Shown in pieces: positions 1-56,466 of a stretch of DNA of 64,000 nt. This DNA comes from a virus (taxonomy: Duplodnaviria > Heunggongvirae > Uroviricota > Caudoviricetes). Under the pieces are notes generated by a model that was not told the origin of the DNA, did not search any database, and was given only the letters and a program-made list of their open reading frames with translations. Where the stretch lies: IMG/VR virus record IMGVR_UViG_3300020577_013140, positions 20,381 through 84,380 of that record; one strand, 5' to 3'. The stretch's first letter is position 1. Every line of letters starts with the position of its first letter. The translations under genes and the position numbers were made by a program.

Positions 1-3000
1 TTTGAGCCTCTCGCTGCGACAGATTTGGGAGCAGGTACCTACTTTGCAGAATACCCTGCAGGGTACGGAAAGACGCTAAACGTCGACATTCAATACCGCG
101 TGGTGGCGAAGCCAGTCGTGGATGCCAACTCCAGCAAGATCGTGCTGTACCAGCGGGCCTACTTCACGCCAGCCCAGCTCTCGTGGACCGGCCAGCCTGA
201 GAAAACTTATCGAGTCAAACGACACCAATTGCTTGCTAACGGTACGGAAGAAGTCGTAGAGATCTCCTCTGAATTGTCAGGTCGGACAAGCTATTTCTTC
301 GTCGACGCACCTACTTCGATTTGCCCAGTACGTATTCACCCAAGCCATTTAGACGAAAAAGATCTTTACCAAGTAAACGATAGTATCTTGCATTACTACG
401 TGTATGATACCACCGGTAATCAGTCGACGCTGTTGCACTCCTGGACACCGGCGCAGCTACGGGCAACGAGCGCGCCATTATTTGTAGTACGTCCAGACAA
501 TATTCTCCCGACCGACGCCGGAGACCTCTTCGGCGTATATGCCCAGGCGCTCACCGATACTTCCAACAATCCCCTATATGCCTCTCCTGGGAACGAGCGA
601 AGCTTGATCTCTACTCCAGGAGGAAAAGGACTGCTCTACAAAATTTACGGGCCTAACACCCCTGCCGGTATCAGCGGCATCCGCTTTGTGGCGCCGTATT
701 ACGACTCACCGGTTGAGCCTCTAGGCAGTAAGTATGAACAGTTCGTCGAGCTCTTTGCCAATGAGACCTTTACCTGGTCAAAAGAGCGCTTATCGACAGT
801 TCAGAATACCTGCAGTGGTCGGCCGACGCCTTGTGTTAACCCATGGTTTCCGTCTCCGCTAAACTTCTATGGATTGGAACAAGTCTGGCGGGTCACCGGG
901 CAACCTGAAGCTTCGTCGACCGACATCATGTCGCAACGCTGCAGGATCTTTCAGCACAAAAGGTTCTTCGGCGCGACACCAATGCTTATCGAGAATACCG
1001 CAGGCTGCGAACCTGGGCAGTTTACAGGCGTATTTGTCTTCAACCCAGCCGTAAATTCCCTGACCGGAGTAGGTAACTTTCGCACCCTGGTCACTGCCAA
1101 CGAATGCTGGTACACCGGCGTAGATAACATCGACAGCTTCCCTATTTACGAGACAGTCGAAGACTTTGCGTGGAACGCAGGGTTACCAGCTTACGACGAG
1201 GCCTTTTACTCCACCCAATGGACCCCATGGTCTGACGCCACTCCATGTACTATCAACGGCGCCGACGCAGCCTGGTACGTACTTCGAACCGGCTACGAGC
1301 GTCTGCACCTTCAATCATTGATGGTGCCAGCACCTGGGGAGTACCAGGTTCGCGGACTAGGCTACATCACCTACAACGGACAAAAATACTACAGTGGGGA
1401 TCCGATCACTTTCCAGTCAAACAACCTGATCTACAACGTTTCTGACCCCACCATGAAACTGGTGACGGTCACCAGTATTGCTTGTAACGAGTTGGTCTTC
1501 GACTTTTTCGCAGGTATCGCTCCAGCCAAGGATCTTGGAGAAAGCGAGCTGCGGGATGGCTTGATATACCGTGTGTGCCAAGGCAAGGGTATCACATATC
1601 TGAAAAAGACCAATACCGGGCAAGAGCTTACAACGGTCTTGCCGGGACAAACTTTCACTTGGCGTGCTGGCGATACTTCAGTAATCCGGCTACCTGCCAA
1701 CGCCGTTTCACAAATCAGGGCGGTGGAAGGCATCATACACCAAGAGGATGTGCCCAAGAAGGGTGTCTCCAATGAGTGGTGTATGTTCTTGTCCTTAAAC
1801 CACTACCATCCGTCTGAAAGCTCCATCTGGAAAACTGATCTCTACGGTGATGTCATGCCTTTCTTGCATAACAGGTGCCACACATACTCGATTGAGATCA
1901 AGGACCCATACCATCCAGTCTTGTCGCAGCAGTTTTGCTACGGGCAGTTCCCTCCATTAGTATCTGAAGCTCCTCCAGGTTACACCTACCTGGAAGACAT
2001 CAACTTCCCTTACTGGCCCGATCGCCAGGTGGCGCGTGACTACTATCGCAGCTGCCAGGTTTACCGCCAACCATACATGTTGGAATCCGTGCAGCTCGTC
2101 TACACACCTACTGGGCAAGAGGACGCCGACGGTAATCCTGCCTATAGCGATAACATCGTAAAGGTGGTAATCAGAGGCCGTATTCAGCATACCCGTGCAG
2201 CGGCTGCGGCCGTGGACAGCACTAACGATGGCGCCAGCGACAAACGAGCCGCCTTGCGTTCTGAGCCCTACCGTACTGACGAAAACGCCATACGCGAATA
2301 CTTGCAATACAATGGTGGGCACTACCACTGTGTGAAAGGAATGATCGGAGATAGCGCCACCAGCTACAACGTATTCACGCTGCCTGATGATCCAATGGGC
2401 GCCTGCCATCCGAGGTTCTATTTGGTGAAGCTTGTCCCTTATGTCCACGAAGACGGTAATACCAGTGTGGAGCAAGACTCTGACAGTCTCATCCGGGTGG
2501 ATCCATACGTCCAAATGGACATGTACCTTCGGGCAATGTGTGGTGGATGGATGGACCTGGATTCTCTCAAGTCGATTAACTGTGACCAGGGCCTGTCTTC
2601 GAGCCCTGTGGCGGACTATCTATACGAAAACCTGTGTTACCAGGCCATTCGTTCGTACGGCGCACATCTTGACGTTACTCCTACCGTGTTGGAAGGAAAA
2701 AACTTTCTACCGCTCAAGACACTGGTGCAGTACGACTTTGACTTCAGCCAAGCTTCTAGCGGCGATGAGCAGCTGATGTTGGAATACCGTACTTGGTTAC
2801 TAGACCGCTGCACCTGGGGACCATGGACGACGTACTCAGGTGCCATATCACCGACTGCTTCCAGCACGCCAATAGGCGGCACAGGTTATAGCACGCCTCC
2901 GGTGATCGAAGTGTCAGCCGGTGTTCCGGAACAGTTCAAGTATGAGGCCTTAGGCTCGCCGGTCACACTACAGGCAAACACGACCTACTTCCTATTCTCG

Positions 3001-6000
3001 GAAGAAACATCCGGAGGAGACTATTGGCATGACAGGACCTACACCGACCTCCAGAACAATAGTTACAAGGCCGAGTTGGCAACGCACGGGATATACAGCG
3101 TGTTCCCAGCCAAATACGTGAGTGGTGCATTGACGGTTTACACGAGCGGCGGTGACCAGAACTCCGGCTTTGGCTTAGTGAGCTTGCGCACAGGCTGCGT
3201 CGGGTGTGCACAAAACAGTGCAATCACACCAGTCGGTGAATACGGTAACAAGGTGCACAACATCACCGGACGCGTAGGTATTCGCTTTACAACCGGTAAC
3301 ACACCAATCACCGTTTACGAGCTTGGGCGTATGGTGATCGCCGGCAACAGTCAAATCCATACCGTTCGCCTAATGGCTTCGGATGGTGTGACACAATTGG
3401 CTGCAGTAAATATCGATGCCTCCTCGGCACTGATAAACCCCAATGACACAGCCACATGGACTCCACCGATACTGACTCCAGTCGTAGCTAATGGTGTGAT
3501 CACAGCAATCAACGTCGAAAACTCAGGCAGTGGGCTGGATGCTTCCAAGATAGCGTTGACCAAGCTGTACATCACCGGTGCCATAGGCAGCGGCGCTCAG
3601 GCACAAATTAACGAGATCTACCCAGCCAATTACGTCGCCGGGCAGGACGACCCGCCTTACAGTTACCCGGGTGGTATAAAGAGTGTTACAGTCACAAACG
3701 GAGGCACCGGTTACGCCTCGCCTGTGGTCGTGACATTTACAAATGAGAGCTTCAGAAACTCGGCCCCAGGCCAGCACTTTCCAGCCCAAGCAGTAGCTAC
3801 GGTTGGTGAGCAGGTGGTCGACCGTATTGTCGTGCCTGTCGGTGGAGAGGGAACAGGATATACCACAGCAACCGTACTGCTCTCTGGAGGAGGAGGTACC
3901 GGAGCCAGGGCGACGGCCGAGATAGTTAATGGAAGTATCACCCGCATCACCGTCACGGATCCTGGGCATAACTACCAGAATCCTCCAATCGTCTCAATTT
4001 CCGGAGACGGCACAGGTGCGGAAGGTATAGCCTTTCTGCGGCTGCTTCAGGGGTCTGTGGGGTCAATCGCAAAAATAACCATCACCCCAGAGACAGAGGC
4101 TAATTACGGCTACGTGTTCCCTCCGGATGTAGTCATCACAGGAGGCGACAGTGGCGACAACTCTGCTCACGGCGCATACGGTGTTGCCAAGATGCAAGTG
4201 CTTAACATGGCTGACGACACCAGCATGCGGGTGGTCGGAGTCGATCTGGTGCCTGAGCCTTACGATGGCCTGGCCTCCGTCACTATTCCTTACGACGGCC
4301 CCACCATGACCAAGACCGAGTTTCGGTTTACTCGACTGGCTGACTGGCCGGGAGGTATCAAGAATGCTAACGCAGCGGAAGTGGCAGACATTAGTGTAAC
4401 AGCGACCTCGCTGCTTTCGTTTTACTTCCTTCCTGACCTTCCAGGAAATCCGCATAAGTACGAAATCAAGCGAGCTGACTTTCTGTACGGTTCAGGTTGC
4501 AACCGTACGCCAACCAGTTGGACAACCTTGACTGGGCTGAATGGCGTAACAGGTCCATTGTGTACTGCCAATAGTAACCACTACGAGTACGATGACTGTA
4601 CCGATAACTGTGCCTGCTTGTGGCCGGATCCGACCACCGATCACCTTCTTCCACTACACGCCCCACTGGAAGGTACTGACATAGTGGGTTCCACGTACCG
4701 CATAAAGGATCTGAACGAAATCGGCGGATCAGGGCATGTGACCTCAGTAGCTGTGGACTCACAAGGCACCTCCTATTCTGCTGGCACGTATGCAACTGTT
4801 GTAGGAGGCGGAGGCACAGGAGCCACCGTTGCGCTTACCGTCAGTGGAGGCTTGGTGACAGGCATCACGTTGACAAACACTGGTAGTGGATACACCCAGA
4901 ACCCGCATATCGTAATCACTGACCCGACCGGCGCCGGGCACGGTGCCAAGGCATCGGCTATTGCTGACTCAAAACTACTCAGCTATTACCTGACGTGGCC
5001 TATGCAGCCATTGGTCGTCTACAACGTAGAGCGCCGCCTGTTTTATCGATTCGACTCCGACATGTCGTGGCATACGTTGGCAACCGGCGTACGTGCTCCG
5101 TATATCGACAACGCACCATGGGAAGAAGGATTCTCGAAGGAGATAGGCGTCGATATCGTCGAGAACCGGCAGAGTCTCGGTGCTCCCGTCGTTATAAGCT
5201 CTGACAATAACCAGTCTTCCCAGACTGCCCGCTCCTTCAATATTACGGCCAGCAAAACCTACAAGAACGTTTACGTAAATTGTGTCGTAACGGTGACAAC
5301 ACCACTGGACGGGCAAGTGGGGTCAGTGGATATTGACTTTCCTGTCGAGGAAGTGGTGGTATATGCCGAAGATTCCACCACAATTGCCTTTGAAGACACC
5401 CGCACATTCTCGCAATGGGATGGGCGCATTGTGTCCTTCACCTATACGATGAGTGAAGTTTCATCAGTGACCGCCTCCTGGCCGACGTTGAACAACCATA
5501 AGGTTCTGGTGGAAAACGCAGCGGAGTCTGAGGTGACGTATGAACTGCACCGTACATTTGAAACAGCTGAAAACTCAGGCTCGACCCTGGTTGACGAGAT
5601 CATCGCGGTTTCAAAAATATCTGGTGCTTCAGCGCCGGACTTTAACCTGGCCGCCGACCAAACCGGCATTACCGTGCAATGGACTGGCTGGAATGACGAT
5701 AGTCACAGACGGCTAGACGATGAACGTAACAACATCGGGTTCTCTCCGAAGCCCCGTATTACGAACACCGAAAAGTACCATGTGATCGCGCACTGGAAAG
5801 ACTGGCCGGAAACTCGCTGCATCGAGGACGCTCAACAGAACCGTGAGGAGTGCGATCCCTTGAACCCGGATACTCCATGCATCAATGCAAACCGACAATA
5901 CCGGGTGGAGACAATCGTGGCGGTCAGGAACCGCTGGTTCACCGCCATGCCCATGGGAATTAACATCGAGCGCCCTCAAGGGTTCTCGCCTGTGCCAAAT

Positions 6001-6852
6001 ACTTGCACCTACGCCGAGATGTTCAACAACTTCGCTAACGCGATTAACAAGCTCATCTACGTCCGGTTGGAACTTCCGTTTACCAAGCGCATGCGCAAGA
6101 TGTACCAGACCTCGGTCCCTTCCTCCTTCTGGTCTGCTCAAATTCCTCCGACTGACTGCTCAAGTATTGGCTGTCTAGGCAGCGGTACGGCACGTGGAGT
6201 GTGTGCTGAGGGCGTCGCAGAAACGACGTACACTGATTGGGACGAAATTCCGGTAGCTGCCTCAGTCACAGCTTCGGCGAGCGTAGGCCCAACCGGCTGG
6301 TCCTCGAACGGCGACTGTGTCAACAACATGAAAATGGGCACTTACCGCGCCTCCACACAGTTTGGAGTAGATCCTGACCAGGAAGCGTTCTCAGCCATAC
6401 CCACGGAGCTGCTGGATAATTTCAGCATCACAAACCTGGCGCTGATCGGTAAACGGTCGGACGAATATGGAAACTGCCGTCTCCGTAGCGGGCTGTACCA
6501 GGGATGTGCAGCAGACACCTGTTGCCGAAACTATTACCAGGGTGACTGCGATTGCCAGGATGAACCTGGTGGACCGGTATATACCACCAACCGCTGTGGA
6601 TGTAACTGCAGGTTGCAGGAAAATGGTACCTTTGCCCGAAATGAATGCCGCACACTATGGACCAACGAAGGCGAATGTGCAGTATTTATGGAAGGAGTAA
6701 TTACGGCCCCCGGACTTCCTTGTGGTGACGCTGGTTGGATAGGTGGTAACGGGTTTGAACGGCAGATTCTGTGCACCTCTGGTGCCTCCTGGTCAGCCTC
6801 GTACATCGACGGCATTCGGAGCTTGGTTTACATGAGCTTCCCATTATACTAA
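1..6852 (+). CDS. Giant Gly-rich repeat protein (5'-partial, >=2283 aa), probable virion structural or adhesin protein
   Basis: Open from nt 1 in frame (the track start at 25 is TTG). Repeated G-rich modules (GGTGYASPVVVTF, GGEGTGYTTATVLLSGGGGTGARATA, VVGGGGTGATVALTVSGG..GSGYTQNPHIVITDPTGAGHGA) and a Cys-rich C-terminus (CRLRSGLYQGCAADTCCRNYYQGDCDCQ..). Confidence 0.6.
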   Translation, partial: FEPLAATDLGAGTYFAEYPAGYGKTLNVDIQYRVVAKPVVDANSSKIVLYQRAYFTPAQLSWTGQPEKTYRVKRHQLLANGTEEVVEISSELSGRTSYFFVDAPTSICPVRIHPSHLDEKDLYQVNDSILHYYVYDTTGNQSTLLHSWTPAQLRATSAPLFVVRPDNILPTDAGDLFGVYAQALTDTSNNPLYASPGNERSLISTPGGKGLLYKIYGPNTPAGISGIRFVAPYYDSPVEPLGSKYEQFVELFANETFTWSKERLSTVQNTCSGRPTPCVNPWFPSPLNFYGLEQVWRVTGQPEASSTDIMSQRCRIFQHKRFFGATPMLIENTAGCEPGQFTGVFVFNPAVNSLTGVGNFRTLVTANECWYTGVDNIDSFPIYETVEDFAWNAGLPAYDEAFYSTQWTPWSDATPCTINGADAAWYVLRTGYERLHLQSLMVPAPGEYQVRGLGYITYNGQKYYSGDPITFQSNNLIYNVSDPTMKLVTVTSIACNELVFDFFAGIAPAKDLGESELRDGLIYRVCQGKGITYLKKTNTGQELTTVLPGQTFTWRAGDTSVIRLPANAVSQIRAVEGIIHQEDVPKKGVSNEWCMFLSLNHYHPSESSIWKTDLYGDVMPFLHNRCHTYSIEIKDPYHPVLSQQFCYGQFPPLVSEAPPGYTYLEDINFPYWPDRQVARDYYRSCQVYRQPYMLESVQLVYTPTGQEDADGNPAYSDNIVKVVIRGRIQHTRAAAAAVDSTNDGASDKRAALRSEPYRTDENAIREYLQYNGGHYHCVKGMIGDSATSYNVFTLPDDPMGACHPRFYLVKLVPYVHEDGNTSVEQDSDSLIRVDPYVQMDMYLRAMCGGWMDLDSLKSINCDQGLSSSPVADYLYENLCYQAIRSYGAHLDVTPTVLEGKNFLPLKTLVQYDFDFSQASSGDEQLMLEYRTWLLDRCTWGPWTTYSGAISPTASSTPIGGTGYSTPPVIEVSAGVPEQFKYEALGSPVTLQANTTYFLFSEETSGGDYWHDRTYTDLQNNSYKAELATHGIYSVFPAKYVSGALTVYTSGGDQNSGFGLVSLRTGCVGCAQNSAITPVGEYGNKVHNITGRVGIRFTTGNTPITVYELGRMVIAGNSQIHTVRLMASDGVTQLAAVNIDASSALINPNDTATWTPPILTPVVANGVITAINVENSGSGLDASKIALTKLYITGAIGSGAQAQINEIYPANYVAGQDDPPYSYPGGIKSVTVTNGGTGYASPVVVTFTNESFRNSAPGQHFPAQAVATVGEQVVDRIVVPVGGEGTGYTTATVLLSGGGGTGARATAEIVNGSITRITVTDPGHNYQNPPIVSISGDGTGAEGIAFLRLLQGSVGSIAKITITPETEANYGYVFPPDVVITGGDSGDNSAHGAYGVAKMQVLNMADDTSMRVVGVDLVPEPYDGLASVTIPYDGPTMTKTEFRFTRLADWPGGIKNANAAEVADISVTATSLLSFYFLPDLPGNPHKYEIKRADFLYGSGCNRTPTSWTTLTGLNGVTGPLCTANSNHYEYDDCTDNCACLWPDPTTDHLLPLHAPLEGTDIVGSTYRIKDLNEIGGSGHVTSVAVDSQGTSYSAGTYATVVGGGGTGATVALTVSGGLVTGITLTNTGSGYTQNPHIVITDPTGAGHGAKASAIADSKLLSYYLTWPMQPLVVYNVERRLFYRFDSDMSWHTLATGVRAPYIDNAPWEEGFSKEIGVDIVENRQSLGAPVVISSDNNQSSQTARSFNITASKTYKNVYVNCVVTVTTPLDGQVGSVDIDFPVEEVVVYAEDSTTIAFEDTRTFSQWDGRIVSFTYTMSEVSSVTASWPTLNNHKVLVENAAESEVTYELHRTFETAENSGSTLVDEIIAVSKISGASAPDFNLAADQTGITVQWTGWNDDSHRRLDDERNNIGFSPKPRITNTEKYHVIAHWKDWPETRCIEDAQQNREECDPLNPDTPCINANRQYRVETIVAVRNRWFTAMPMGINIERPQGFSPVPNTCTYAEMFNNFANAINKLIYVRLELPFTKRMRKMYQTSVPSSFWSAQIPPTDCSSIGCLGSGTARGVCAEGVAETTYTDWDEIPVAASVTASASVGPTGWSSNGDCVNNMKMGTYRASTQFGVDPDQEAFSAIPTELLDNFSITNLALIGKRSDEYGNCRLRSGLYQGCAADTCCRNYYQGDCDCQDEPGGPVYTTNRCGCNCRLQENGTFARNECRTLWTNEGECAVFMEGVITAPGLPCGDAGWIGGNGFERQILCTSGASWSASYIDGIRSLVYMSFPLY

Positions 6853-6856: not shown

Positions 6857-7303
6857 ATGATTTACTTTCCTGTCCCGAATAATGCACCACCGACTCCGGT
6901 CGCTCACATTATCAGAGGGCCGGCGAGAAAGGCGAGTGCAACATCTCCGCTTGTTGCGCCGAAGTCCATTACTCCGCCCCATGAGGAATTAAAGAAGCTG
7001 GTCCAAAAGACCAGTGTGCCTCTGCCACCACCAGAGACCGTGCTGACAGAAGAGTCGGTGCCGTCACTGCCCAGCATGACGCAGATGGCAAAAAACGTAC
7101 TGGGAAGTCTAGGGAGAGTAGTGAAGTCAGCTGCTCAAGGACAGGGTGTGCAGCTGGGGAAAGAAGCAGCAGAGGCACGTCTCGCAATTTGCAAAACGTG
7201 CCCCTTTTTCCGACATGTCGACGAACGCTGTTCCAAATGCGGCTGTTACATGGCCGTGAAGACGTACCTTCGTGCGGAGAAATGCCCGGTAGGAAAATGG
7301 TAA
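6857..7303 (+). CDS. Pro-rich protein with C-terminal Cys4 zinc-ribbon (CKTCPFF..CSKCGC)
   Basis: 148-aa ORF immediately after the giant ORF; C-terminal CxxC..CxxC. Confidence 0.4.
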   Translation: MIYFPVPNNAPPTPVAHIIRGPARKASATSPLVAPKSITPPHEELKKLVQKTSVPLPPPETVLTEESVPSLPSMTQMAKNVLGSLGRVVKSAAQGQGVQLGKEAAEARLAICKTCPFFRHVDERCSKCGCYMAVKTYLRAEKCPVGKW

Positions 7304-7993
7304 CTATACCTCCGGGATCTTCACCCGGCTATTGAGAATAGTCTCGTGGTCCACCCACTTGAGCTTGCCTTCCTTGTCCTTGACGAGCTTGTAGAGCTTG
7401 TTGTCGCGCCCCTTGAGGGTGTTGGCTGCGATGTACTGCGTCACACCAACCTTGTCGGATTCAGCGATGTGCAGGGGGTCAAAGAAACCGAACGACGAGG
7501 TATTGATCTGCCGTGACTCCTTCGGGATAGACTCGCTGCCGGCAATACCGCCCTCACCCATCTTCGTCACGCGATGGGCATTGTCGAAATGCTCCATCGG
7601 GTTAATACCTTCCACGTTATTACTCAGGCTGTTCCCGATAACCACAGACTTAATTTGAGGCGTGAAGAAGGAAGACGAGAGCCAGCTAAGATTTTTTCTT
7701 TGCTGGATCTTGAGCGCTGCCTTTTTACGTAGTCCCGCAGCGTCTTTTTCAATATGGTCTTTGATGAAGTCTTCAAGTCCTAGAAAGCTGGAAAAACGAA
7801 GGTTATCGCGGTCATCCGGTTCGACTTCCTTCTTGTTGATTTTGATCAGCTTGGCCGAAGCAAGCAGCAACGTACGAGCGGAAACGCTGGAGAGCGGCTC
7901 CCCTAACGTTTGCTTCGTGACGACTGGATCGACGTAAGTGCGAGCCAACCACTTTTTCAGCGCGTCGATTTTTTCTTGTTTGGATAAGACCAT
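7304..7993 (-). CDS. Fragment of multisubunit RNA polymerase beta subunit (split-RNAP piece, fork/Rif-region homolog)
   Basis: [42 protein letters not shown] aligns to rpoB [65 protein letters not shown] aligns to [31 protein letters not shown]. Confidence 0.6.
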   Translation of the reverse strand: [229 protein letters not shown]

Positions 7994-7994: not shown

Positions 7995-8010
7995 TGCGTA
8001 TATTACTCAA
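7995..8010 (+). promoter_or_regulatory. AT-rich TATATTAC element resembling phiKZ-type early promoter core
   Basis: gcgtatattactc sits in the intergenic region upstream of the dCMP deaminase gene. Confidence 0.2.
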
Positions 8011-8239
8011 TAGACCGGTTTTACACAAGCTCTATGACCCTACAAATCGAACTAGACGAGGCCGCCGAAACAGTGCATCTCGTCGTTGACGATCAGCTGG
8101 TCCTTAACGCCCACCGTCGCTCTCCGACCCATATCGTTTTCCGAAACTTCGACGCGCTCGTTGACGACAGGATCCACGACGCCGTAAAGGCAATCGCAAC
8201 CACGCTACTAGATTTGACAGGGGTCTGAGGTGTGCTAGA

Positions 8240-9546: not shown

Positions 9547-11652
9547 ATGAGTATCAATTTTCTAGACGAGATTTCCGGATTTATTTTCACCAACAAGTAT
9601 GCTCGTTACAACGGGCTGGTAGAACGTCGCGAAACGTGGGAAGAGTGTGTGGACCGTGTGGCCACCATGCACATCAGCAAGTTCCGCAAGAAGTTGCCCA
9701 AGGAGGACTTGGACCGCATTCGCTGGGCTTTCGAGCTGGTGAAGTCCAAGACTATCGTGCCCTCGATGCGTTCCATGCAATTCGGTGGCAAGGCTGTGAC
9801 CACACACAACGCTCGTGTCTATAACTGCGCAGTCCGCCATATCGACAGTATCCGCGCTTTTGCTGAAGTATTCTACCTGCTGCTCTGCGGCTGCGGTGTA
9901 GGTATCGGTGTCATGCCGCATTTCATTGACCGTCTTCCTTCGCTGGTAAATGCCAACGACAAGACCGGCGCCGTGCTAACTTATGTGGTCGATGATTCCA
10001 TTGAGGGTTGGGCCGACTCCATCGAGGCCCTGCTCAACTGTTATTTCCGTAATACAGCTTACACCGGTCGCAAGATCGTGTTTGATTACAGCAAGATCCG
10101 GCCTGAAGGCGCACCGCTGAAGACCTCTGGTGGCAAGGCCCCTGGTTACAAGGGGCTCAAGAACTGCCATAAGCAGATCAAGGCGTTGCTCGACCACGTC
10201 ATCGAGGATCTACAGCAAAGCCGGCTGAAGCCGATCAACGCTTACGATGTGCTCATGCACGTTTCGGATGCTGTGTTGTCTGGAGGTATCCGCCGTTCAG
10301 CCACCTGCGTGATCTTTGACGTCAACGACCAGGAGATGATGGATGCCAAGACCTACTTCAAGGTCACCAAGCACACCAAGTTCAGCTATGACGAAGACAC
10401 CAAGAAGCACTACGGCAAGGTGACAGTAAACAAGAAAGTTTACGAGGTCGAGCTGACGGACTGGGAGCACGGGCAGTTGCTCAAGGAAGGTACCGTTGGC
10501 TGGAATCACATCGAGCCTCAGCGCGGGCGTAGCAACAACAGTGTGTTGCTTCTCCGGGACAAGGTGACTCGTGAGCAGTTCAAGGCCATCGTCGAACGTA
10601 CTAAGCAGTTTGGTGAGCCAGGCTTCGTATTTGCCAACCATCCGTGGCAGATGTTCAATCCCTGCTTCGAGATCGGGTTTATTCCTGTGACCGAGGATGG
10701 CGTCTGTGGTGTGCAGTTCTGTAACCTAAGCTCTGTCAACGGTGCACAGATTACCACGCAGGCCAGCTTCCTCGAAGCAGTCGAAGCTGCGACTATCATC
10801 GGTACACTCCAGGCGTCTTACACGGACGAACTACGGTATCTCAACCAGGCAGCCAAGAAGCTAACGGAGCAGGAAGCCCTGCTCGGGGTTTCCATCACGG
10901 GGGTCATGGATAATCCTGAAGTCCTCTTGAACAAGGAGAACCAGGCGGAAGCAGCCAAGCACGCTGTTTCCATCAACGACCTGTGGGCACGTAAGCTGGG
11001 CATCAACCCTGCTGCTCGTGTCACCTGCATCAAGCCTGAAGGCACCAGCAGCCTCGTACTGCGCAGTGCCTCTGGTATCCATCCGCATCACGCTCGTCGG
11101 TATTTCCGCCGTGTGCAATGCAATAAAATGGACCCAGTGTACAAATACTTTAAGTCCATTAACCCGCACATGTGCGAGCCTGGTGTTTGGAGTGCCAATA
11201 AAACAGACGACGTAATTACGTTTCCGTTGACCGTCTCCGATCAGGCCATGGTCAAGGCAGACCTTGACGCCACCAAGCATCTGGAGATTGTTAAATCGAC
11301 CCAACAAAGCTGGGTCCTTGAAGGTGTAAACAAAGAGCACAATAACAAACCGGTGACCCACAACGTATCGTGCACGATCCTCGTGAAGGACGACGAATGG
11401 GATACGGTTATTGACTATCTCTTTGATAACCGTGAATTCTTCAGCGCCGTATCGTTGCTGCCTTTGATCGGTGACAAGCTGTACAAGCAGGCACCGCTCG
11501 AAGCCGTGACTACGCAAGCCGACGAGGAGCTATGGTCTAAGCTGGTGACCGGCTACACTCCTGTCGATTACCGTAAGTTGAAGGAGGAGGAAGACACCAC
11601 CCGAGTGCAGGAAAGTGCTGCATGTGCTGGAGGAAAATGCGAGTTGTACTAG
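9547..11652 (+). CDS. nrdJ: Ribonucleotide reductase large chain, class II (B12-dependent)-like
   Basis: 702 aa with CNLSSVN and NPCFEIGF active-site motifs. No small-subunit gene is adjacent. Start set at ATG 9547, after the dut stop. Confidence 0.7.
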   Translation: MSINFLDEISGFIFTNKYARYNGLVERRETWEECVDRVATMHISKFRKKLPKEDLDRIRWAFELVKSKTIVPSMRSMQFGGKAVTTHNARVYNCAVRHIDSIRAFAEVFYLLLCGCGVGIGVMPHFIDRLPSLVNANDKTGAVLTYVVDDSIEGWADSIEALLNCYFRNTAYTGRKIVFDYSKIRPEGAPLKTSGGKAPGYKGLKNCHKQIKALLDHVIEDLQQSRLKPINAYDVLMHVSDAVLSGGIRRSATCVIFDVNDQEMMDAKTYFKVTKHTKFSYDEDTKKHYGKVTVNKKVYEVELTDWEHGQLLKEGTVGWNHIEPQRGRSNNSVLLLRDKVTREQFKAIVERTKQFGEPGFVFANHPWQMFNPCFEIGFIPVTEDGVCGVQFCNLSSVNGAQITTQASFLEAVEAATIIGTLQASYTDELRYLNQAAKKLTEQEALLGVSITGVMDNPEVLLNKENQAEAAKHAVSINDLWARKLGINPAARVTCIKPEGTSSLVLRSASGIHPHHARRYFRRVQCNKMDPVYKYFKSINPHMCEPGVWSANKTDDVITFPLTVSDQAMVKADLDATKHLEIVKSTQQSWVLEGVNKEHNNKPVTHNVSCTILVKDDEWDTVIDYLFDNREFFSAVSLLPLIGDKLYKQAPLEAVTTQADEELWSKLVTGYTPVDYRKLKEEEDTTRVQESAACAGGKCELY

Positions 11653-12394: not shown

Positions 12395-12408
12395 ACAAGA
12401 TATTATAC
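12395..12408 (+). promoter_or_regulatory. CAAGnTATTATACC promoter-like motif (copy 1)
   Basis: caagatattatacc in the divergent intergenic region. Confidence 0.35.
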
Positions 12409-12596
12409 CTTCTAGGGGGGTGGTTATTTACCTAGGGTCCCGGGGGGCTAAAAAAAGGCAGGGAGGTGTGACCCCCCTGCCCGGCGGTGTCCCTACCGCC
12501 ATAGGCCTCACGAGCCAGCAACAATCCAATTACTCACTGCAACGCTCCCTTCCACCACTCCTCTCCAAGAGGGGTAGAAAGAAGCCAAAGTGTCTA

Positions 12597-17097: not shown

Positions 17098-17916
17098 TTA
17101 TTGTTGGGTTGCAGCAGAAGCACTATTAAAAACTGGCGGAGCGTTGTCGAAGATTGCTTCCTCCTTGTTCACGACCTTACTAAGTTCGTAAGGCCATTCG
17201 ACTACGTCTGTCCTAAGCACCTTGCTGCCGGGTGGAGGGCGATGTTGCTCCGGGATGGCCACAAAGTCATCCGGGCATAGCTCCCGCTCGACAGTCTGCT
17301 TGCGATAGAAGGCACCGGTCTTAACCCACTTCGGGTAGTCGGCCCAGTTAATACCTTTTTGGAAAAGCATCTCCTGTTGCTCGTCGGCACTTTTACCGTG
17401 CAGCTCTTTGTTCGAATAGTGCGCTTGAGCTGCCGACGAGATGCTATTTCTTCGAGCGTCCTTCTCACGCCACAATAGTACGTTCACAGCTTCGTACTTT
17501 GTCGGAAGCTGCCAAACGCGACAATCAAACGTCGCAGGCTTCACAAGAGGCACTGACAGGCTTTTTCCGAGAAACTCGTTGAACGCCGCAGTGGCGATCG
17601 AAGCCAGTACCGAGGTCAGCTTGTACAGCTTACCATCGAAGAATATCTGTGACTTCGGATTCTCTTGATACAAGATCAAAGAGATCTCATCCGATTGCGT
17701 GTAGCCGATCACGGCCCCAGACTCACGCAGCAGTTGGTCGGTCGCGTAGACAAACGCCGCATGGAGGTCTTCATCAAAGGGTTTCTTGAACCGCTTAGTA
17801 AATGTGTGGAATGCACGCCCATCAATTCGGGCGGCGACTGGAAGCAGAGGGAGTAACGTTCGACCCGTCTCCATTGCTTCATACTCTTTCATCCGATCGC
17901 CAAATTCATCTCTCAT
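17098..17916 (-). CDS. Thg1-like protein (tRNA-His guanylyltransferase / 3'-5' polymerase family, TLP)
   Basis: ARIDGRAFHTF..KPFDEDL..VIGYTQSDEISLIL..FFDGKLYKLTSVLASIATAAFNEF aligns to human THG1L VVRLDGRNFHRF..KPNDSRAL..IVIAYGQSDEYSFVF. Confidence 0.85.
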   Translation of the reverse strand: MRDEFGDRMKEYEAMETGRTLLPLLPVAARIDGRAFHTFTKRFKKPFDEDLHAAFVYATDQLLRESGAVIGYTQSDEISLILYQENPKSQIFFDGKLYKLTSVLASIATAAFNEFLGKSLSVPLVKPATFDCRVWQLPTKYEAVNVLLWREKDARRNSISSAAQAHYSNKELHGKSADEQQEMLFQKGINWADYPKWVKTGAFYRKQTVERELCPDDFVAIPEQHRPPPGSKVLRTDVVEWPYELSKVVNKEEAIFDNAPPVFNSASAATQQ

Positions 17917-17950: not shown

Positions 17951-18053
17951 TGGTGCCCTCGGCAGGATTCGAACCTGCATACGTGCGCTTATCTAGCGCA
18001 TGCTTTCGCCCGGGAATAAGCCGGGAGCCCTAACCAGTTGAAGCTACGAGGGC
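17951..18053 (-). tRNA. Atypical 103-nt tRNA (encoded CCA; anticodon loop CTTATTC giving UAU?) with a 30-nt variable region
   Basis: GCCCTCG..CGAGGGC-A-CCA acceptor, T-arm GCAGG-TTCGAAT-CCTGC, anticodon stem CCCGG/CCGGG, extra hairpin GCATGCGC-TAGATAA-GCGCA. Confidence 0.5.
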
Positions 18054-18734: not shown

Positions 18735-18971
18735 TCATGTGCAACAATGCACAACGATGTCGTGCTCCTGTTCCTCCATCCAACGAGGTTTGGCTTTCAT
18801 GTCAGTTCGAGGAGGGTTAATTGGTGGATCCTGGCACTCAAACCAGACTACGATGTCTTGTTCCCCTTGAGCTTCAAACCAACGTGCGAAGTGGCGCGCC
18901 TGCTCAATGGTGAGACCGTCGAAGATTACTCTTGCCATAATGTGTTCTTTTCCCATCGACTGTGGCGCCAA
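18735..18971 (-). CDS. hypothetical protein
   Basis: 78-aa ORF; overlaps the 3' end of the next gene. Confidence 0.3.
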   Translation of the reverse strand: MAPQSMGKEHIMARVIFDGLTIEQARHFARWFEAQGEQDIVVWFECQDPPINPPRTDMKAKPRWMEEQEHDIVVHCCT

Positions 18972-19969
18972 TGGCTGTCTGTGCTTACGTGGTTCGGCCG
19001 TACAAACTTTGCCACGTTACTGCGAAAGGCACCGTAATTGAACGCACTGGAATTGCGCACGACATAGCCTTCCATCAAGTCCGGTGTTCTATTCGGAACA
19101 TACAATGACCGGATCTTCTCTTCATCCCATGCGCCGCGATACAGCACTGGAACTGTTTGAAGCCCAAGTAGTTCTGCCCACTCGGTTGTTTCATCCCAGG
19201 ACAAACAAACGTTCCGTTCGTTCCAAATGGAGAACACCTGGAAATACGCACGCAACTGCTTGTAGTGGATGCTGTGTTTAATCAGTAAGTTCTCTCCGCA
19301 CACACGCCAGCCTTCTGGAATTTCATGTGCGACCTGTGTCCACGCGCGCCATACTTCAGCACGGTCCGCACCACTGGCCTTTTCCAAGGAGCGCGCATGA
19401 ACGTAGTCGTTGTAAAGCGTCGTATTTTCACCATCCAGTTTTTCAGTGACCACCACTTCCATTCCATTGAACGGCTCCAAGGAAGGAAGCACCCGGTCAT
19501 CGCTTGAAGGGCAGGACCAAGGCAAATGATAAGTTCGTGGGTACTTGACGTACTTTACAAACAGAGGCAACACTCCACCTTGTGACAGAATCTTCTGTAC
19601 GCTCTCGTCAAAGAACAACTCGCCTTTTAGCCGTGTGCCATTCGGCAAGACCGGATTGCCCCATTTGTCGTATTCTTGGTCTCGGTACAGATGCGCCGGT
19701 AAAAGAGTCTGTGTTATTCCTGCACGTTCTCGCAAGGTCGCCGGAGACAGTGTCGTCTCCTCGGCCTGGATGTGGTGTATGGCACAGAGGCTTGCTCCGT
19801 TGTCCAGGAAGTAACCGCCGGCCTCAGTCGGCTCCGTCCAGAGCCTCCGCTCCATAATATGATGTGCGTCGAGAGGACCAGAGGCCCGACATACTACGCA
19901 GCGATTGTCGTCGCGGGCAAACACAGCCTCACGAAAAGCGTTACGTTCCAGCAAGGTAGAAGTTGTCAT
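18926..19969 (-). CDS. HNH-nuclease-domain / RNA ligase (Rnl2/Rnl5-like nucleotidyltransferase) fusion protein
   Basis: N-terminal CVVCRASGPLDAHHI..LCAIHH (HNH). C-terminal ligase motifs TEKLDGEN (I), CGENL (III), EGYVVR (IV), KFVR (V). Start moved to the Met at 19969 because tRNA-Leu occupies 19976..20056. Confidence 0.65.
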   Translation of the reverse strand: MTTSTLLERNAFREAVFARDDNRCVVCRASGPLDAHHIMERRLWTEPTEAGGYFLDNGASLCAIHHIQAEETTLSPATLRERAGITQTLLPAHLYRDQEYDKWGNPVLPNGTRLKGELFFDESVQKILSQGGVLPLFVKYVKYPRTYHLPWSCPSSDDRVLPSLEPFNGMEVVVTEKLDGENTTLYNDYVHARSLEKASGADRAEVWRAWTQVAHEIPEGWRVCGENLLIKHSIHYKQLRAYFQVFSIWNERNVCLSWDETTEWAELLGLQTVPVLYRGAWDEEKIRSLYVPNRTPDLMEGYVVRNSSAFNYGAFRSNVAKFVRPNHVSTDSHWRHSRWEKNTLWQE

Positions 19970-19975
19970 AGAAAA

Positions 19976-20056
19976 TGCGCCCAGCAGGACTTGAACCTGC
20001 ACCCCTCACGGGACTAGATTTTGAGTCTAGCGCGTCTGCCATTCCACCATGAGCGC
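19976..20056 (-). tRNA. tRNA-Leu(CAA), class II
   Basis: Anticodon arm CTAGA-CTCAAAA-TCTAG, long variable arm. Confidence 0.65.
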
Positions 20057-22726: not shown

Positions 22727-23110
22727 TCATAACGCAAGAGCTAGCTGCCTCAGCTGATCAACTGCCGCATCCGGTGATGGCGCAGGGTCGACAAACCGAA
22801 AGGCAGGGGCCGCCTTTTTCCGGTCTTTCTCCTCCTCCTCGCGCTCTTCTTCTTTGGTAGGAGCCGGACCCATTTGCTTCAGTACGCAAGGTTCACAGTA
22901 GCCCAACAGCTGATACTTGAAAGCATACCATGGGTGGCTAAATGCCTTTGCCTTCCCCTTGCAGAGTTGGCAATTTTCACCGTCATAGAAAATAGGAAAG
23001 CCATCGCTGTCCCGTTTCCATTGTTTGCACTCAGGAAACTTCGGAATATGCCGCTTCCAGAACGGCACAGGTTTTTCTTCTTTGTCGGATTTCTTCATGA
23101 GGTTGGCCAC
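22727..23110 (-). CDS. Cys-rich hypothetical protein (CQLCKGK..CEPC)
   Basis: 127-aa ORF. Confidence 0.4.
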   Translation of the reverse strand: MANLMKKSDKEEKPVPFWKRHIPKFPECKQWKRDSDGFPIFYDGENCQLCKGKAKAFSHPWYAFKYQLLGYCEPCVLKQMGPAPTKEEEREEEEKDRKKAAPAFRFVDPAPSPDAAVDQLRQLALAL

Positions 23111-23574
23111 ACATATGGCAAGTTATCAGGCACTACCCAATTAAACTGGCGGTACCACTCCGGGGCTTTCCGCAGCAAGTTGCTGCGATGTGAATCATGG
23201 AAAGCGTCCGTACCGAACCACGGAGGCTTTAAGGCGTCTTCAGTTTTCGTTGCAGGGTTTACGGCAGGTACCAACGCAATAATCCGTGCACGACAGGAAT
23301 CCCTATAGTTACGACGGACCCATTCATCGCAGATTTCAATACCGTATTCCGCCAGGGAAGGCTCGAATCCTTTCCACATCTTGGCGGCCGGGTGATTCAC
23401 CCACCCTTTCGGGTTGAACGGCTCAACGATCCAGCCGGTAACTGTTTCGACCACCTTCGTTCTGGTCAACGCTTGAAGTAGTTGAACACACTCAACGCGC
23501 TGTTTACCAAGTCGTTTATTGTCCAGCGCCCAAGCTGAGCGCCGGAAGTCAGGATACGGAAGAAAGGTCTGCAT
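23095..23574 (-). CDS. conserved hypothetical protein (N-terminal MQTFLPYPDF..LDNKRLGKQRVE motif)
   Basis: 159-aa ORF; the family was not confidently recognised. Confidence 0.45.
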   Translation of the reverse strand: MQTFLPYPDFRRSAWALDNKRLGKQRVECVQLLQALTRTKVVETVTGWIVEPFNPKGWVNHPAAKMWKGFEPSLAEYGIEICDEWVRRNYRDSCRARIIALVPAVNPATKTEDALKPPWFGTDAFHDSHRSNLLRKAPEWYRQFNWVVPDNLPYVWPTS

Positions 23575-24145: not shown

Positions 24146-25483
24146 CTATTCGTAGTTCCGAATCGCCCTTACAAAGGGGATCTGAGGAACTCCATATTCC
24201 GACAGCTGTTGGTATTCCACAGTAGCCATCTCGCCGATGAACTCCTCACGGCGTTCATACAGTTCACGTAGCCATTCACGATCACCCTCAATATTGGAGG
24301 CAAACGCTGTCTCACCTGTGGGAGTAGGATCGTGAAGCTTGAGCACAATGCGTTTGGCGCACCCGACCCAATCTCCATTACCCTCCTCGATGGCAACGAC
24401 TTCAAACTCGTCGTCATCCTCGTGCTTAAGCTTTAGCATCTGTTTGGATCGTCCATGCTTGAACTCGCATTTACCCCAGCGGATCATCAGACCTTCACCC
24501 TTGGCTGCCTTGTTGGCTTCCATGAGCTTGGTGATCTCGGCCTTGGATTTGGCCACGACGTACGGGTGCATCACCAGATGGCGGCCGACCTTGTATTTCT
24601 TCTGGATATCCTCAATCAAGGTCTTGACCGCAGCATACCGCTCAATCCACGGAGTTTCCGTAGTAATACCATTGAAGCCGTAACCATCGAACACGTAGAA
24701 CTTGACCAGCTCTTCGGATTCGGCACGCATCTCAGGCGTGATGTCCTTGGGTTGATAGACCACGCTGACGATCTCAACCAACCGGTTCAGTCGTTCCCGC
24801 AACTCGTGATTGTGCGCTTCGCCGTCAATGAACGCTTCCGGATGCTCCGCGAAGATAGGCGAAAGGGCCGCACGGATATGGGGAATCGTATGAAATAGTT
24901 TTCCGCCTGTCGACAGTGCGCCCACCGCGGTGTTCTGACAGCGGATGCCGTTGAGCTTGTCTTGGACATAGACCGGATATTCGACTTCATCTTCTCGGTC
25001 GACGAACTTGTCACCCTTCATGGGTTTCTTGAACGCGACTTTGTCGACCGCCTTGATATCAGCCGTGTAGCCAAGGGTTTGCTTCTTGTCCCATTTGGCT
25101 TTCGCTTCCTTGATGGCTTGCTCGGCCGCCGTGGTAGCGTTCGCCTTGCCGGTGTTCTTGGCTTCACAGGTATGCGCCGCGGAGGTCGTCAACTTGCCAC
25201 CGACAACACCCTCTTCAACGAAGTAGCTGTTGCCTTTGGTATAGATGCGCCACTGCTGGAGCTTACCGTTAGAATTTCGTTTGTAGAGAGTTGCTAGTGT
25301 TTCGGACATGTTGTTGAATTGAATTGCGGCGCCACACGCTCCACCGTTTGCAACCGGTGCCCAATGCTTAATCGGGTTGCTACCCTGAGTTGTGGTCTTC
25401 GGGGCCGTCGCCCCTGTTTCGGATACCATGTACGCCGTATCTCGGTAGTTCTGAGCACGGAACGTTTTGATCACGGGCCGCAA
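24146..25483 (-). CDS. ATP-dependent DNA ligase with N-terminal extension
   Basis: Motifs KLNGIR (I), FIDGEAH (III), EGLMIR (IV), LKLK (V); start uncertain. Confidence 0.7.
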   Translation of the reverse strand: MRPVIKTFRAQNYRDTAYMVSETGATAPKTTTQGSNPIKHWAPVANGGACGAAIQFNNMSETLATLYKRNSNGKLQQWRIYTKGNSYFVEEGVVGGKLTTSAAHTCEAKNTGKANATTAAEQAIKEAKAKWDKKQTLGYTADIKAVDKVAFKKPMKGDKFVDREDEVEYPVYVQDKLNGIRCQNTAVGALSTGGKLFHTIPHIRAALSPIFAEHPEAFIDGEAHNHELRERLNRLVEIVSVVYQPKDITPEMRAESEELVKFYVFDGYGFNGITTETPWIERYAAVKTLIEDIQKKYKVGRHLVMHPYVVAKSKAEITKLMEANKAAKGEGLMIRWGKCEFKHGRSKQMLKLKHEDDDEFEVVAIEEGNGDWVGCAKRIVLKLHDPTPTGETAFASNIEGDREWLRELYERREEFIGEMATVEYQQLSEYGVPQIPFVRAIRNYE

Positions 25484-34823: not shown

Positions 34824-34827
34824 ATGG

Positions 34828-35240
34828 TGGAGATGCCGGGAGTTGAACCCGGGTCCCATAAACCAACTATCAACCAATGCTACATGCTTAGTTCGTTCAA
34901 ATAAGACCTCATACCCGAATGAACAAAGGAGTGAGGAATTTATCCACTGTGATATGAACGCCGGTACTGTGGACCCTGTGGCGTAAACCCTGAAAAACAC
35001 CGACCCTAAATATCAGGAGTCTCCAGGCGGTGGCTTCACCATGATTAGGCGAAGGCGAGCTGGGCAGGGGCAGGAAGCGCAAAGGCAGCCTTGACCGAAG
35101 CCCAGGCATTCTTGGCAAAACCGACAACTGCATTGATCACGTTATTGGCGTGTTGTTTTGATGGGTGTTGAAAGGGCTAACCATCATCCCTTGCATGCAT
35201 TGAGTATCCGTTTAGTCTAGGTCGAAACCAGTACATCCCC
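34828..35240 (-). ncRNA. ssrA: tmRNA (ssrA)
   Basis: 5' end GGGGATGTACTGGTTTCGACCTAG pairs with 3' end GGTTCAACTCCCGGCATCTCC-ACCA, a tRNA-Ala-like T-arm and acceptor. An internal ORF ends ..AKNAWASVKAAFALPAPAQLAFA* (candidate tag). Confidence 0.6.
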
Positions 35241-36440: not shown

Positions 36441-36554
36441 AGCACCTGGTTGGACTCGAACCAACGGCCAGACCTTGCTCCCGGCATTTTGGTCCTTCAC
36501 CATTGCACTCTCGTGCTTGAGGGAGGTCTGCTCTACCAACTGAGCTACAGGGGC
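36441..36554 (-). tRNA. tRNA with 41-nt insertion in the anticodon loop (putative intron; identity unresolved)
   Basis: Canonical acceptor GCCCCTG, D-arm GCTC-AGTTGGTA-GAGC and T-arm GTTGG-TTCGAGT-CCAAC. Anticodon stem GACCT...AGGTC is separated by 48 nt instead of 7. Confidence 0.55.
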
Positions 36555-41807: not shown

Positions 41808-42497
41808 TCAACAGGTTTTTCGTTCACAAGTCTGCGAGCGAAATATTCCGTCATCTACGGCATGTACTGGAACGTTTATCTGCCCTGGCGCTGTGTACAC
41901 CAGCGAACGCTGCTGTGCGAACATTGGGTCGGAGTAAACGTACACACCACCAACCTCGTTAAAAAGTGATTGAATCTGCACATCCATTGGGATGTCGCAA
42001 TTCAATCGAGGCAAAGCATGGGCCGCTGCCTTTTTATTTATCATGTAGGCATGGCAGCACATTGGCGGCCACGAAACGCGATCGAAAGATTTGTTCACTG
42101 GCTCGCGCGCTTCGAAGTTACACCAGCAATAGCCCCAATACACAACGTTCCAGTCAGATGGCAGAGCAAAAGCATACGCCTTGAACATCGTGGCCAACGC
42201 GTTGCTTGGGAGTAAAACGTCGTCTTCAAAAATCAAGAAGGCCTTGTGGTCTGAGGCCAACAAGGATTTCCACAGAGCCATATGCCCAAGCTGGCAGCCG
42301 ATCATGCCTGGTGTCATTGATTGTTTTAGCGAGCTCAATTCCATGCGACGGCCGTGGAAGCCGTGAAATGGGCGAGCTGAGAAACCTCGCTCGGTGTTAA
42401 GATGGCGTAACGCAATTTGCTCCCGCTCTGGCGTCTCTGCAAGAGTCAGAACATACGTGGGAGGCAAGCAAAAGTTGTGGAGTCTGGAGAGAAGCAT
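41808..42497 (-). CDS. Glycosyltransferase family 25
   Basis: YVLTLAETPEREQ.. and GCQLGHMALWKSLLASDHKAFLIFEDDVLL. Confidence 0.65.
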   Translation of the reverse strand: MLLSRLHNFCLPPTYVLTLAETPEREQIALRHLNTERGFSARPFHGFHGRRMELSSLKQSMTPGMIGCQLGHMALWKSLLASDHKAFLIFEDDVLLPSNALATMFKAYAFALPSDWNVVYWGYCWCNFEAREPVNKSFDRVSWPPMCCHAYMINKKAAAHALPRLNCDIPMDVQIQSLFNEVGGVYVYSDPMFAQQRSLVYTAPGQINVPVHAVDDGIFRSQTCERKTC

Positions 42498-42514
42498 GGT
42501 ACAATTTTGGCGAA

Positions 42515-44137: not shown

Positions 44138-44916
44138 TCCCAAAGCGCATTCATTTCATATTCGGGCTTCGAGAAGACTTCGGTGGTAAGCCTTGGTCCA
44201 TGATCCACTACCTTGCGGTTGCTTCTGCGAAAGAGATCAACCCTGAGTACGAAGTCATGATGCACGCCAAGTATGAGCCGAAGGGGAACTTCTGGTGGGA
44301 CGCAACCAAAGCGATGGTGACGATGGTCCCTGTCGAAGAGGTCCCGATGAGTATTTTCGGTAAGCCAATCAAAAACCACGCACACTCAGCAGACGTACTC
44401 AGACTACGCGCGATTCAGAAATATGGCGGCATCTACCTCGACTCCGACACAATCTGCGTCAAGCCATTTGACCCATTGTTGTCTCATGAGTTTGTAATGG
44501 GTGTGGAGAAGTTCGAGGGACACATAAACGGGCTGTGCAATGCAGTCATCATGAGCGCACCCAATGCTCCCTTTCTGGATCACTGGTACAACGCCTACCA
44601 TGAGTTTAATCCTGATGGTTGGATTGAAATCTCAGTACAAAAACCGATGGCGTTATCTCAGCAATTTCCTGACCTGATACATATTGAGCCGAACGAGAGT
44701 TTTTTCAAGTTCGACTGGTCCCAAAAGCATGTTGCGATGCTACATGACGGAGTAGCTGACGTCAGTGATTGCTACTCCATCCACCTATGGGAAACCATCG
44801 TATGGCGAGAAATACTCAGCGGGCTAGATCCAGTTAAGCTGCTGAGGAAGACGACGACATATTCAACGTTGGCACGGCGTCACCTACAGCGTTTTGGATC
44901 AACAGCGTTCGCTTGA
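44134..44916 (+). CDS. Glycosyltransferase family 32 (DXD sugar-binding region)
   Basis: IHFIFG.. and LRAIQKYGGIYLDSDTICVKPFDPL. Confidence 0.65.
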   Translation: MIPKRIHFIFGLREDFGGKPWSMIHYLAVASAKEINPEYEVMMHAKYEPKGNFWWDATKAMVTMVPVEEVPMSIFGKPIKNHAHSADVLRLRAIQKYGGIYLDSDTICVKPFDPLLSHEFVMGVEKFEGHINGLCNAVIMSAPNAPFLDHWYNAYHEFNPDGWIEISVQKPMALSQQFPDLIHIEPNESFFKFDWSQKHVAMLHDGVADVSDCYSIHLWETIVWREILSGLDPVKLLRKTTTYSTLARRHLQRFGSTAFA

Positions 44917-55444: not shown

Positions 55445-55495
55445 AAAGAAACCCCGGCCAGCAATTGCCGACCGGGGCTGATTATTGGTCGCCGA

Positions 55496-56464: not shown

Positions 56465-56466
56465 GG

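Follow-up and report, generated by a model that had tools for sequence, protein, structure and literature searches.

Does a short open reading frame (ORF) on the genome of a tailed phage encode one part of a multisubunit RNA polymerase (RNAP), and if so, where is the rest of the enzyme and to which family does it belong? The question is raised by a stretch of 64,000 nucleotides (the window in what follows; positions 20,381 to 84,380 of the Caudoviricetes record IMGVR_UViG_3300020577_013140 in IMG/VR), in which an earlier note, made from the sequence alone, had read a gene of 229 amino acids (aa) as a fragment of the RNAP beta subunit, split as in the phiKZ-like phages. To our knowledge, split phage multisubunit RNAPs are known almost only from phiKZ/AR9-type jumbo phages. 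Here we conclude, with a probability of roughly 0.85, that this gene, which we call M, encodes a functional and separately translated middle piece of beta in a phage multisubunit RNAP of the type carried by Salmonella phage Arash. Its homology to beta, its status as a stand-alone gene, the selection acting on it and the presence of complementary pieces on the contigs of its relatives are all directly observed.

The assignment of M to the fork and Rif-cluster region of beta, as proposed in the earlier note, is upheld by Pfam, by structures in the PDB and by profiles of Arash-type proteins. The Pfam family suggested at that time as a check, RNA_pol_Rpb2_3 (PF04565), matches M residues 128-191 with 24.6 bits (E=3e-5), above its curated cut-off (gathering score) of 21, and its precomputed annotation is found on about half of the M homologues. 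When M was compared with the PDB as a single sequence using phmmer, exactly the two blocks that had been quoted as resembling bacterial beta were aligned with bacterial beta chains, at E values of only 0.04-1. A profile of 36 M family members reached about 49 distinct bacterial and plastid beta sequences in the PDB at E values of 9e-10 to 5e-4, with a match to E. coli beta that spans residues 419-576 (E=4e-9). The match of M to PHROGs is to the generic full-length beta family (E=0.027). Finally, a profile of Arash-type proteins, in which beta is joined to the N-terminal part of beta' (beta-beta'N), was built from 32 proteins recovered from IMG/VR and covers M end to end (profile positions 233-461, E=4.5e-61); all 229 residues are therefore homologous to beta, and not just the 170 or so that had been estimated before. 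By extrapolation, M would correspond roughly to E. coli beta 385-617. At profile position 461 M ends without the catalytic double-psi beta-barrel (DPBB) domain (Rpb2_6), which in relatives is found in a separate piece of 997 aa. Two further candidates were set aside, namely the top PDB match of M, a designed helical repeat protein whose score is a sum of sub-threshold helical repeats, and homology beyond the M stop codon, where a tblastn tail to position 7190 proved to be a weak extension only.

Searched by tblastn against 50,697 phage records, M matched only Salmonella phage Arash and the Vibrio phages D69, D148 and D181 (28% identity over 97-99% of M; E=1e-24 for Arash and D181). The matching part of Arash is residues 231-469 of gp206, a protein of 1525 aa that is annotated as RNAP beta and in which we found beta to be continued by the N-terminal half of beta' (LHGNKGVVS … NRAPTL … AADYDGD), the remainder of beta' being gp216 (606 aa, with the trigger-loop motif GENVGVIAAQS). 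The Vibrio phages have the same fusion, in a protein of around 1500 aa. Both gp206 and gp216 are among the most abundant proteins detected in Arash virions (PMC10585845). In Arash the regions that we call N, M and C thus form a single ORF; in the clade to which the window belongs M is a gene of its own, and N and C are separate genes in the relatives. We refer to these two arrangements as contiguous and split.

As a stand-alone gene M is widespread and strongly conserved. A library of 5.8 billion proteins yielded 172 homologues at E<=1e-3 that are 53-94% identical and lie on contigs of up to 239 kb; nearly all of the 120 homologues listed are about 228-237 aa long, the few longer ones bearing mini-inteins or N-terminal extensions. 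All of these metagenomic relatives stand alone, on phage contigs of about 190-240 kb with shared synteny. An alignment of 36 sequences (53-94% identity) contains 33 invariant columns, among them those of the fork-loop GxGG and of the block SR…FG..DP…E….G, with G146, G148, G149, S160, R161, F168, G169, D172, P173, E178 and G183 found in 36 of 36. Relative to a homologue with 88% identity, the ratio of nonsynonymous to synonymous substitution rates (dN/dS) is 0.059, with synonymous sites near saturation. Mini-inteins are inserted in the fork-loop region of three members of the family, and inteins typically persist at conserved sites of indispensable proteins.

The pieces that would complete M are found on the contigs of its relatives, where N, M, C and the C-terminal part of beta' (beta'-C) are separate genes on the same contigs, so that the earlier proposal of a beta subunit encoded in several pieces holds; the hunt for further beta and beta' fragments that went with it succeeded on these contigs and returned none from within the window. 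One such case is contig 3300044614_002195, which bears the M locus L017 and on which N occupies positions 11-224 of the profile, M positions 230-461 and C positions 472-1456. In its C piece (997 aa, E=6e-296) both the DPBB lysine (FGAKGVVS) and the Asp triad (GYGGDCDGDQ) are retained, and 1.6 kb downstream of this piece lies a beta'-C gene of 619 aa (E=1e-175). About 20 IMG/VR loci have N as an ORF of its own (approximately 221 aa, profile positions 7-225), located 4-8 kb from M on the other strand, and stand-alone N proteins of 217-222 aa number at least 351. Near one N gene, some 8 kb off and on the opposite strand, is a 997-aa gene with Rpb2_6, Rpb1_1 and Rpb1_2 domains, and across the relatives beta'-C (about 617 aa) follows 1-3 kb downstream of the C piece. 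The set of four genes (N, M, C and beta'-C) recurs in 5 IMG/VR and 27 JGI/ENA loci, one of them a contig of 188,554 bp, equal in length to the one that carries the M piece P0118, and every split-clade locus encodes N, M and C in separate genes. The borders of the three pieces are complementary within a few residues, and their summed length (221+230+997 = 1448 aa) compares with 1447-1490 aa in most of the intein-free contiguous relatives.

Searches for the C piece were complicated by a substitution. Split-clade C pieces carry FGAKG instead of GNKG, and this N-to-A change explains why pattern-based scans with contiguous C parts missed the split-clade C genes. Among the loci returned when C-part alignments of contiguous relatives were scanned over IMG/VR we found only contigs of the contiguous Arash-like kind or of mReC, a group of large environmental phages that, as here, have a bacterial-like multisubunit RNAP (Weinheimer and Aylward 2020); an IMG/VR scan with a single protein gave no match. 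Matches to the contiguous C part fall into 3129 protein clusters of the library, a count that may include cellular RpoB/RpoC and mReC homologues. Three candidates of about 1000 aa (P0130, P0238 and P0354) were rejected as C pieces, being truncated or ambiguous at contig ends, and an apparent beta' (L407) turned out to be a eukaryote-type Rpb1 of a giant virus. Megablast of 20 kb of the window against the phage records gave no match.

Several points weigh against the assignment of M to a working polymerase. No other RNAP piece is present in the 64-kb window, where tblastn down to E=50 gave chance-level matches only and a profile search with filters off gave none, and neither a sigma factor nor an RNAP accessory gene was detected among about 40 window ORFs scanned against Pfam (10 of them also against PHROGs). 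AlphaFold2 models M alone with a mean pLDDT confidence score of 61 and with the fork region below 50, and a Foldseek search with this model found no significant match (best E=0.76, the top matches being RNAP beta chains); the poor model is compatible with a segment that folds only inside the complex, and is not evidence for such folding. Furthermore, it is from relatives that we infer where the N, C and beta'-C genes of the window phage would be expected, namely just to the left of the window. The window opens at the start of its giant ORF (25-6852). In L488, a relative 66-67% identical in M, the orthologue of this giant gene is followed by a 521-aa gene, three small genes and then, at the end of the locus, a 230-aa gene that closes with VDKFYNKVFTQY and a stop codon, which is the C-terminus of an N piece and lies just beyond the equivalent of the window's left edge. 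The 83-88%-identical relatives were covered only within 10 kb on either side of M.

The alternative that fares best under these circumstances, improbable as we consider it, is that M is an exapted fragment of beta with no remaining role in a phage polymerase and with the host as its target, for instance docking on the host RNAP or its factors to serve as a decoy or modulator. The unseen partner genes of the window genome, the presence of an early-type sigma70-like promoter belonging to M itself, and the prediction that isolated M does not fold as a compact domain would all fit such a role. Set against this, every relative's contig of which enough is visible has N, C and beta'-C, with borders that fit those of M (225/230 and 461/472), the sum of the pieces equals the length of the contiguous protein, and the conserved residues of M are those that in beta contact nucleic acid and the active-site cleft.

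A second possibility, less probable again by about half, is that the pieces do not remain pieces and are rejoined into one beta-beta'N chain by trans-splicing, either of the protein through a split intein or of the RNA, or by a programmed inversion of the DNA. The family is very rich in inteins (at the GNKG site of L036, in proteins with up to six matched stretches, and as the mini-inteins of M), and in Vibrio phage D181 a homing endonuclease gene lies at a split. However, M runs from MVLSKQEK to VKIPEV, exactly on the borders of homology and with no spare sequence for intein halves, and the 1448 aa of N, M and C together leave no room for an Int-N or Int-C. A separate start codon opens every piece, M and C are each preceded by a promoter, and N is encoded on the strand opposite M and C. 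No intron family was recognized by Rfam in the window, and an architecture with an invertible segment was likewise rejected, since only short imperfect inverted repeats flank M. Neither halves of a split intein nor introns nor flanking inverted repeats are present. Most likely, the polypeptides stay separate.

To decide which family the split enzyme belongs to, both its architecture and its phylogeny are informative. Arash, D69, D148 and D181 are the nearest cultured relatives of the split-clade C piece as well (30-31% identity over at least 94% of its length), and the Arash type and the split clade have in common a beta C-terminus fused to the N-terminal part of beta' with its Asp triad, together with a separate beta'-C, which for the split clade is seen in the relatives. 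When 507 columns from the C-terminal region of beta were analysed by neighbour joining, with bacterial RpoB as the root and with 100 replicates, the split clade came out as monophyletic in 100/100 replicates and the split plus contiguous Arash-like sequences in 100/100, whereas the contiguous sequences alone were monophyletic in 0/100. On these sequences the split clade is thus demonstrably nested among contiguous forms, which makes its fragmentation secondary. Breakage elsewhere in the lineage was also encountered. The same N|M junction is broken in some loci of the contiguous lineage (L127, L154 and L162), and the D181 protein is split near residue 514, beside the homing endonuclease gene and at a point other than the split-clade breaks. 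These break points appear to be intrinsically tolerated. In the more distant IMG/VR locus L036 (9338-14776; 37% identity) the region is contiguous except for a 360-aa intein at the GNKG site. Inteins are rampant in Arash-type beta-beta'N proteins generally, the library proteins P0241-P0389 reaching 3350 aa with up to six matched stretches.

It follows that the phiKZ-like, nucleus-forming affiliation offered in the earlier note does not stand. That M could be a fragment of the virion or non-virion split RNAP of a phiKZ-like phage (Chimalliviridae) was a natural thought, as the phiKZ/AR9-type enzymes follow the same principle of a bacterial-type, two-barrel RNAP made of beta and beta' fragments from dispersed genes and without alpha, their beta coming in two pieces in the non-virion and three in the virion RNAP (PMC7598289, PMC7824862), and as the contigs of M relatives are of jumbo size (about 190-240 kb). 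We nevertheless regard it as very improbable. In the 50,697 phage records the only full-length tblastn matches of M and C were Arash and D69/D148/D181, with no phiKZ-like phage among them, and in the PDB the M family profile matches nothing but bacterial and plastid beta chains at E<=1. Beyond general beta homology there is no detectable sequence relationship between the phiKZ-type enzymes and the split clade; the split points differ, the phiKZ-type enzymes lack the fusion of beta-C to beta'-N, M and C genes bear sigma70-like promoters, and the split described here arose secondarily within the contiguous Arash-like lineage. Chimallin, PhuZ or a second RNAP set were not found among the approximately 40 window ORFs scanned (a 64-kb part of the roughly 210-kb genome). 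No more probable is a decaying pseudogene, a remnant of a once-contiguous RNAP gene as the position of M on the strand opposite its neighbours and the lack of any other RNAP piece in the window might suggest, in view of the low dN/dS at nearly saturated synonymous sites, a length that stays constant at about 228-230 aa in almost every listed homologue, even at 53% identity, invariant fork-loop and Rif-region residues, mini-inteins maintained in some members and a conserved promoter layout before the gene.

The Arash-type enzymes, contiguous and split, are also distinct from mReC. In the tree mReC is the sister group of the Arash-like and split lineage, and unlike the split clade it has separate genes for beta' (about 905 aa) and beta (about 1010 aa); its beta scores approximately 230 bits on the Arash-type profile, versus approximately 1000 bits for the split-clade C piece. 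We rejected the identification of the Arash-like lineage with mReC; the split clade differs from mReC in architecture and groups with the Arash-like sequences in 100/100 replicates. The IMG/VR loci L285-L359 form a separate lineage with the mReC architecture, in which beta' (about 905 aa) lies upstream of beta (about 1005 aa) on contigs of up to 356 kb; several of these loci are mReC contigs of that study. Among cellular enzymes, the archaeal B''/B' split and the splits of beta' in cyanobacteria and plastids indicate that the large subunits of multisubunit RNAPs tolerate division into separate polypeptides, and the archaeal B''/B' break falls just after the fork domain (Rpb2 domain 3), near the M|C break. 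In those cellular cases the halves are encoded by adjacent genes of one operon, whereas here the genes lie on both strands with unrelated genes between them and beta is in three pieces. This is an independent fragmentation in a very large lineage other than phiKZ/AR9, and in the literature that we searched we found no paper describing either the Arash-type fusion architecture or its fragmentation.

M is preceded by a candidate sigma70-like promoter (Table 1). The same layout, TTGnnn-17-TAnnAT ending 5-8 nt before the ATG, is found ahead of M in L003, L486, L488, L005, L007, L017, L032, L034 and L023, and an equivalent element precedes the C-piece genes in L481, L482, L484 and L485. Within the window there are 3 sites of this layout versus 0.06 in shuffled sequences; the -35 match before M is weak, and a simple consensus promoter scan made no call at that position. 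With its -10 element so close to the start codon, the candidate implies a leaderless or near-leaderless M mRNA. The promoter layout suggests that M and C are co-regulated, leaderless early genes of the sigma70 type, which would probably be transcribed by the host.

The recurring motif TATTATACC, to which the earlier note had drawn attention as a possible promoter of the phage polymerase, is a genuine feature of the clade. The window contains 5 sites, all on the + strand, versus 0.17 expected, a number reached in 0 of 100 shuffles, and 721 kb of split-clade loci contain 61, about 11 times the expectation despite a protein divergence of about 50%. It is not enriched in contiguous Arash-like loci. 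Nor does it occur upstream of M, C or N, the site at 12401 being the nearest one to M in the window. The copy at 51407 is followed after 43 nt by the ATG at 51459, and a G-rich Shine-Dalgarno sequence lies between the two. In the window and in L003-L039 most sites have TCAAnA ahead of them and many have a hairpin there, a G-run (GGGGGAGGGG) occurs 25-40 nt after them, AGCTAAAAA follows in many loci, and some units (12401 and 12602) are arranged in tandem about 200 nt apart. Such arrays could mark short transcripts or leaders. That TATTATACC may be a dedicated promoter of the phage enzyme is a reasonable conjecture.

Drawing these observations together, we propose the following scheme. In the contiguous relatives, a protein of approximately 1450-1525 aa comprises all of beta and the N-terminal half of beta' with its catalytic Asp triad, and a second one of approximately 610 aa the rest of beta' with its bridge helix and trigger loop. 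In the window clade the first of these genes has secondarily been broken into N (about 221 aa), M (about 229 aa) and C (about 997 aa; beta DPBB/flap plus beta'-N), its parts lying on both strands over some 17-30 kb, and the core enzyme would be put together non-covalently from the four polypeptides N, M, C and beta'-C. M would contribute the fork domain, fork-loop 2 and the Rif-pocket wall, which lines the RNA-DNA hybrid and the downstream fork. Both M and C would be co-expressed as leaderless early transcripts from sigma70-like promoters, probably by the host RNAP, after which the phage enzyme, once assembled, may read the TCAAnATATTATACCA elements that are specific to the clade. The assembly of the pieces, their enzymatic activity, the timing of their expression and the promoter specificity are the parts of this scheme that we infer. 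In a hand alignment taken from the PDB phmmer match, M has N and T at the equivalents of E. coli beta H526 and S531, which are textbook hot spots of rifampicin resistance, and from these residues the phage enzyme would probably be rifampicin-insensitive. In its fullest form, that of an abundant uncultured branch of the Arash type with the gene shattered in three, a four-polypeptide core, leaderless early M and C, and an enzyme that reads clade-wide TCAAnATATTATACCA promoters, the proposal is a tentative one to which we give slightly less than even chances; in the literature searched we found no description of this architecture or of this promoter class.

The surroundings of M are conserved along with it. 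Relatives that are 66-88% identical keep the gene order of a giant ORF, usually a DUF6171 gene, M on the opposite strand, dCMP deaminase, dUTPase or MazG, and ribonucleotide reductase; in a close relative (L486 5273-8350) the reductase holds a LAGLIDADG domain. The stop codons of M and of the DUF6171 gene abut without an intergenic base, the arrangement is alike in relatives, and in L017 the two genes overlap by 26 nt (10668-10693). Because the ends of the two genes are stop-to-stop or overlapping, their transcripts must overlap in antisense. The contiguous beta-beta'N genes of L084, L090 and L096 likewise have DUF6171 homologues downstream. A hairpin downstream of M is only tentatively put forward as its terminator, with a weak T-tail and a hairpin count no greater than in shuffled sequences. 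Orthologues of the giant ORF measure 3182 aa in L003, 2731 aa in L486 and 2284 aa in L488; the window protein is 47% identical to the 3182-aa orthologue (L003/L004) and has glycine-rich GGGGTGA repeats. Elsewhere the window carries a large tRNA cluster, a tmRNA gene, a family of small paralogous ORFs, an RNA and DNA repair toolkit and a block of glycosyltransferase genes, the positions of which are included in Table 1.

Table 1. Position of M, its candidate expression signals, and other features of the window.
Feature	Position	Strand	Remarks
M piece gene	7304..7993	minus	229 aa, ATG start; positions 233-461 of the Arash-type beta-beta'N protein; fork domain, fork-loop-2 (GEGGI), equivalents of Rif clusters I and II
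Sigma70-like promoter candidate of M	8000..8028	minus	-35 TTGTGT 8028-8023, 17-nt spacer, -10 TAATAT 8005-8000, ATG 6 nt on
Terminator-like hairpin	7171..7205	minus	16-bp stem, about 100 nt downstream of the M stop, within the DUF6171 gene; tentative
DUF6171 gene	6857..7303	+	convergent neighbour of M; Pfam PF19668, 28.8 bits
Giant ORF	25..6852	+	2275 aa; between M and the expected N-piece position left of the window
TATTATACC copies	12401..12409, 12602, 40981, 51407, 62332	+	extended consensus TCAAnA-TATTATACC-A
tRNA genes	17016-41102	minus	34 genes for most amino acids, small ORFs interspersed
Unusually long Rfam tRNA matches	17954-18053 and 36441-36554		two; may contain introns
tmRNA gene	34825-35240	minus	full-length, within the tRNA cluster; RF00023 108.9 bits versus gathering score 47; no ARAGORN call
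Thg1-like tRNA-His guanylyltransferase	17098-17916		repair toolkit
HNH-RNA ligase fusion	18926-20002		repair toolkit
Pyrimidine-dimer glycosylase	23095-23574		repair toolkit
ATP-dependent DNA ligase	24146-25483		repair toolkit
Glycosyltransferase block	41808-49825		at least 4 genes
Small paralogous ORFs	54992-59060	minus	five, about 120-150 aa, similar C-termini (…ELEASGxxEYRxx)

These findings bear on how split polymerases come about and on how they are recognized. A multi-piece state has been proposed to be ancestral for the phiKZ-type enzymes (PMC7824862). The split described here is derived within a contiguous lineage and shows that piecewise RNAPs can arise by fragmentation, which bears on the debate as to whether the phiKZ-type pieces are ancestral. 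Automated labels of "RNAP beta subunit" or "hypothetical" for proteins of about 220-230 aa miss the point that four genes make up one enzyme. The clade shows where beta can naturally be broken, at permissive points that follow roughly residues 385 and 617 of the E. coli protein, and M constitutes a minimal, free-standing fork-domain subunit that would be useful for studying RNAP assembly without an alpha platform and for split-polymerase engineering, with TATTATACC as a testable candidate promoter for the phage enzyme.

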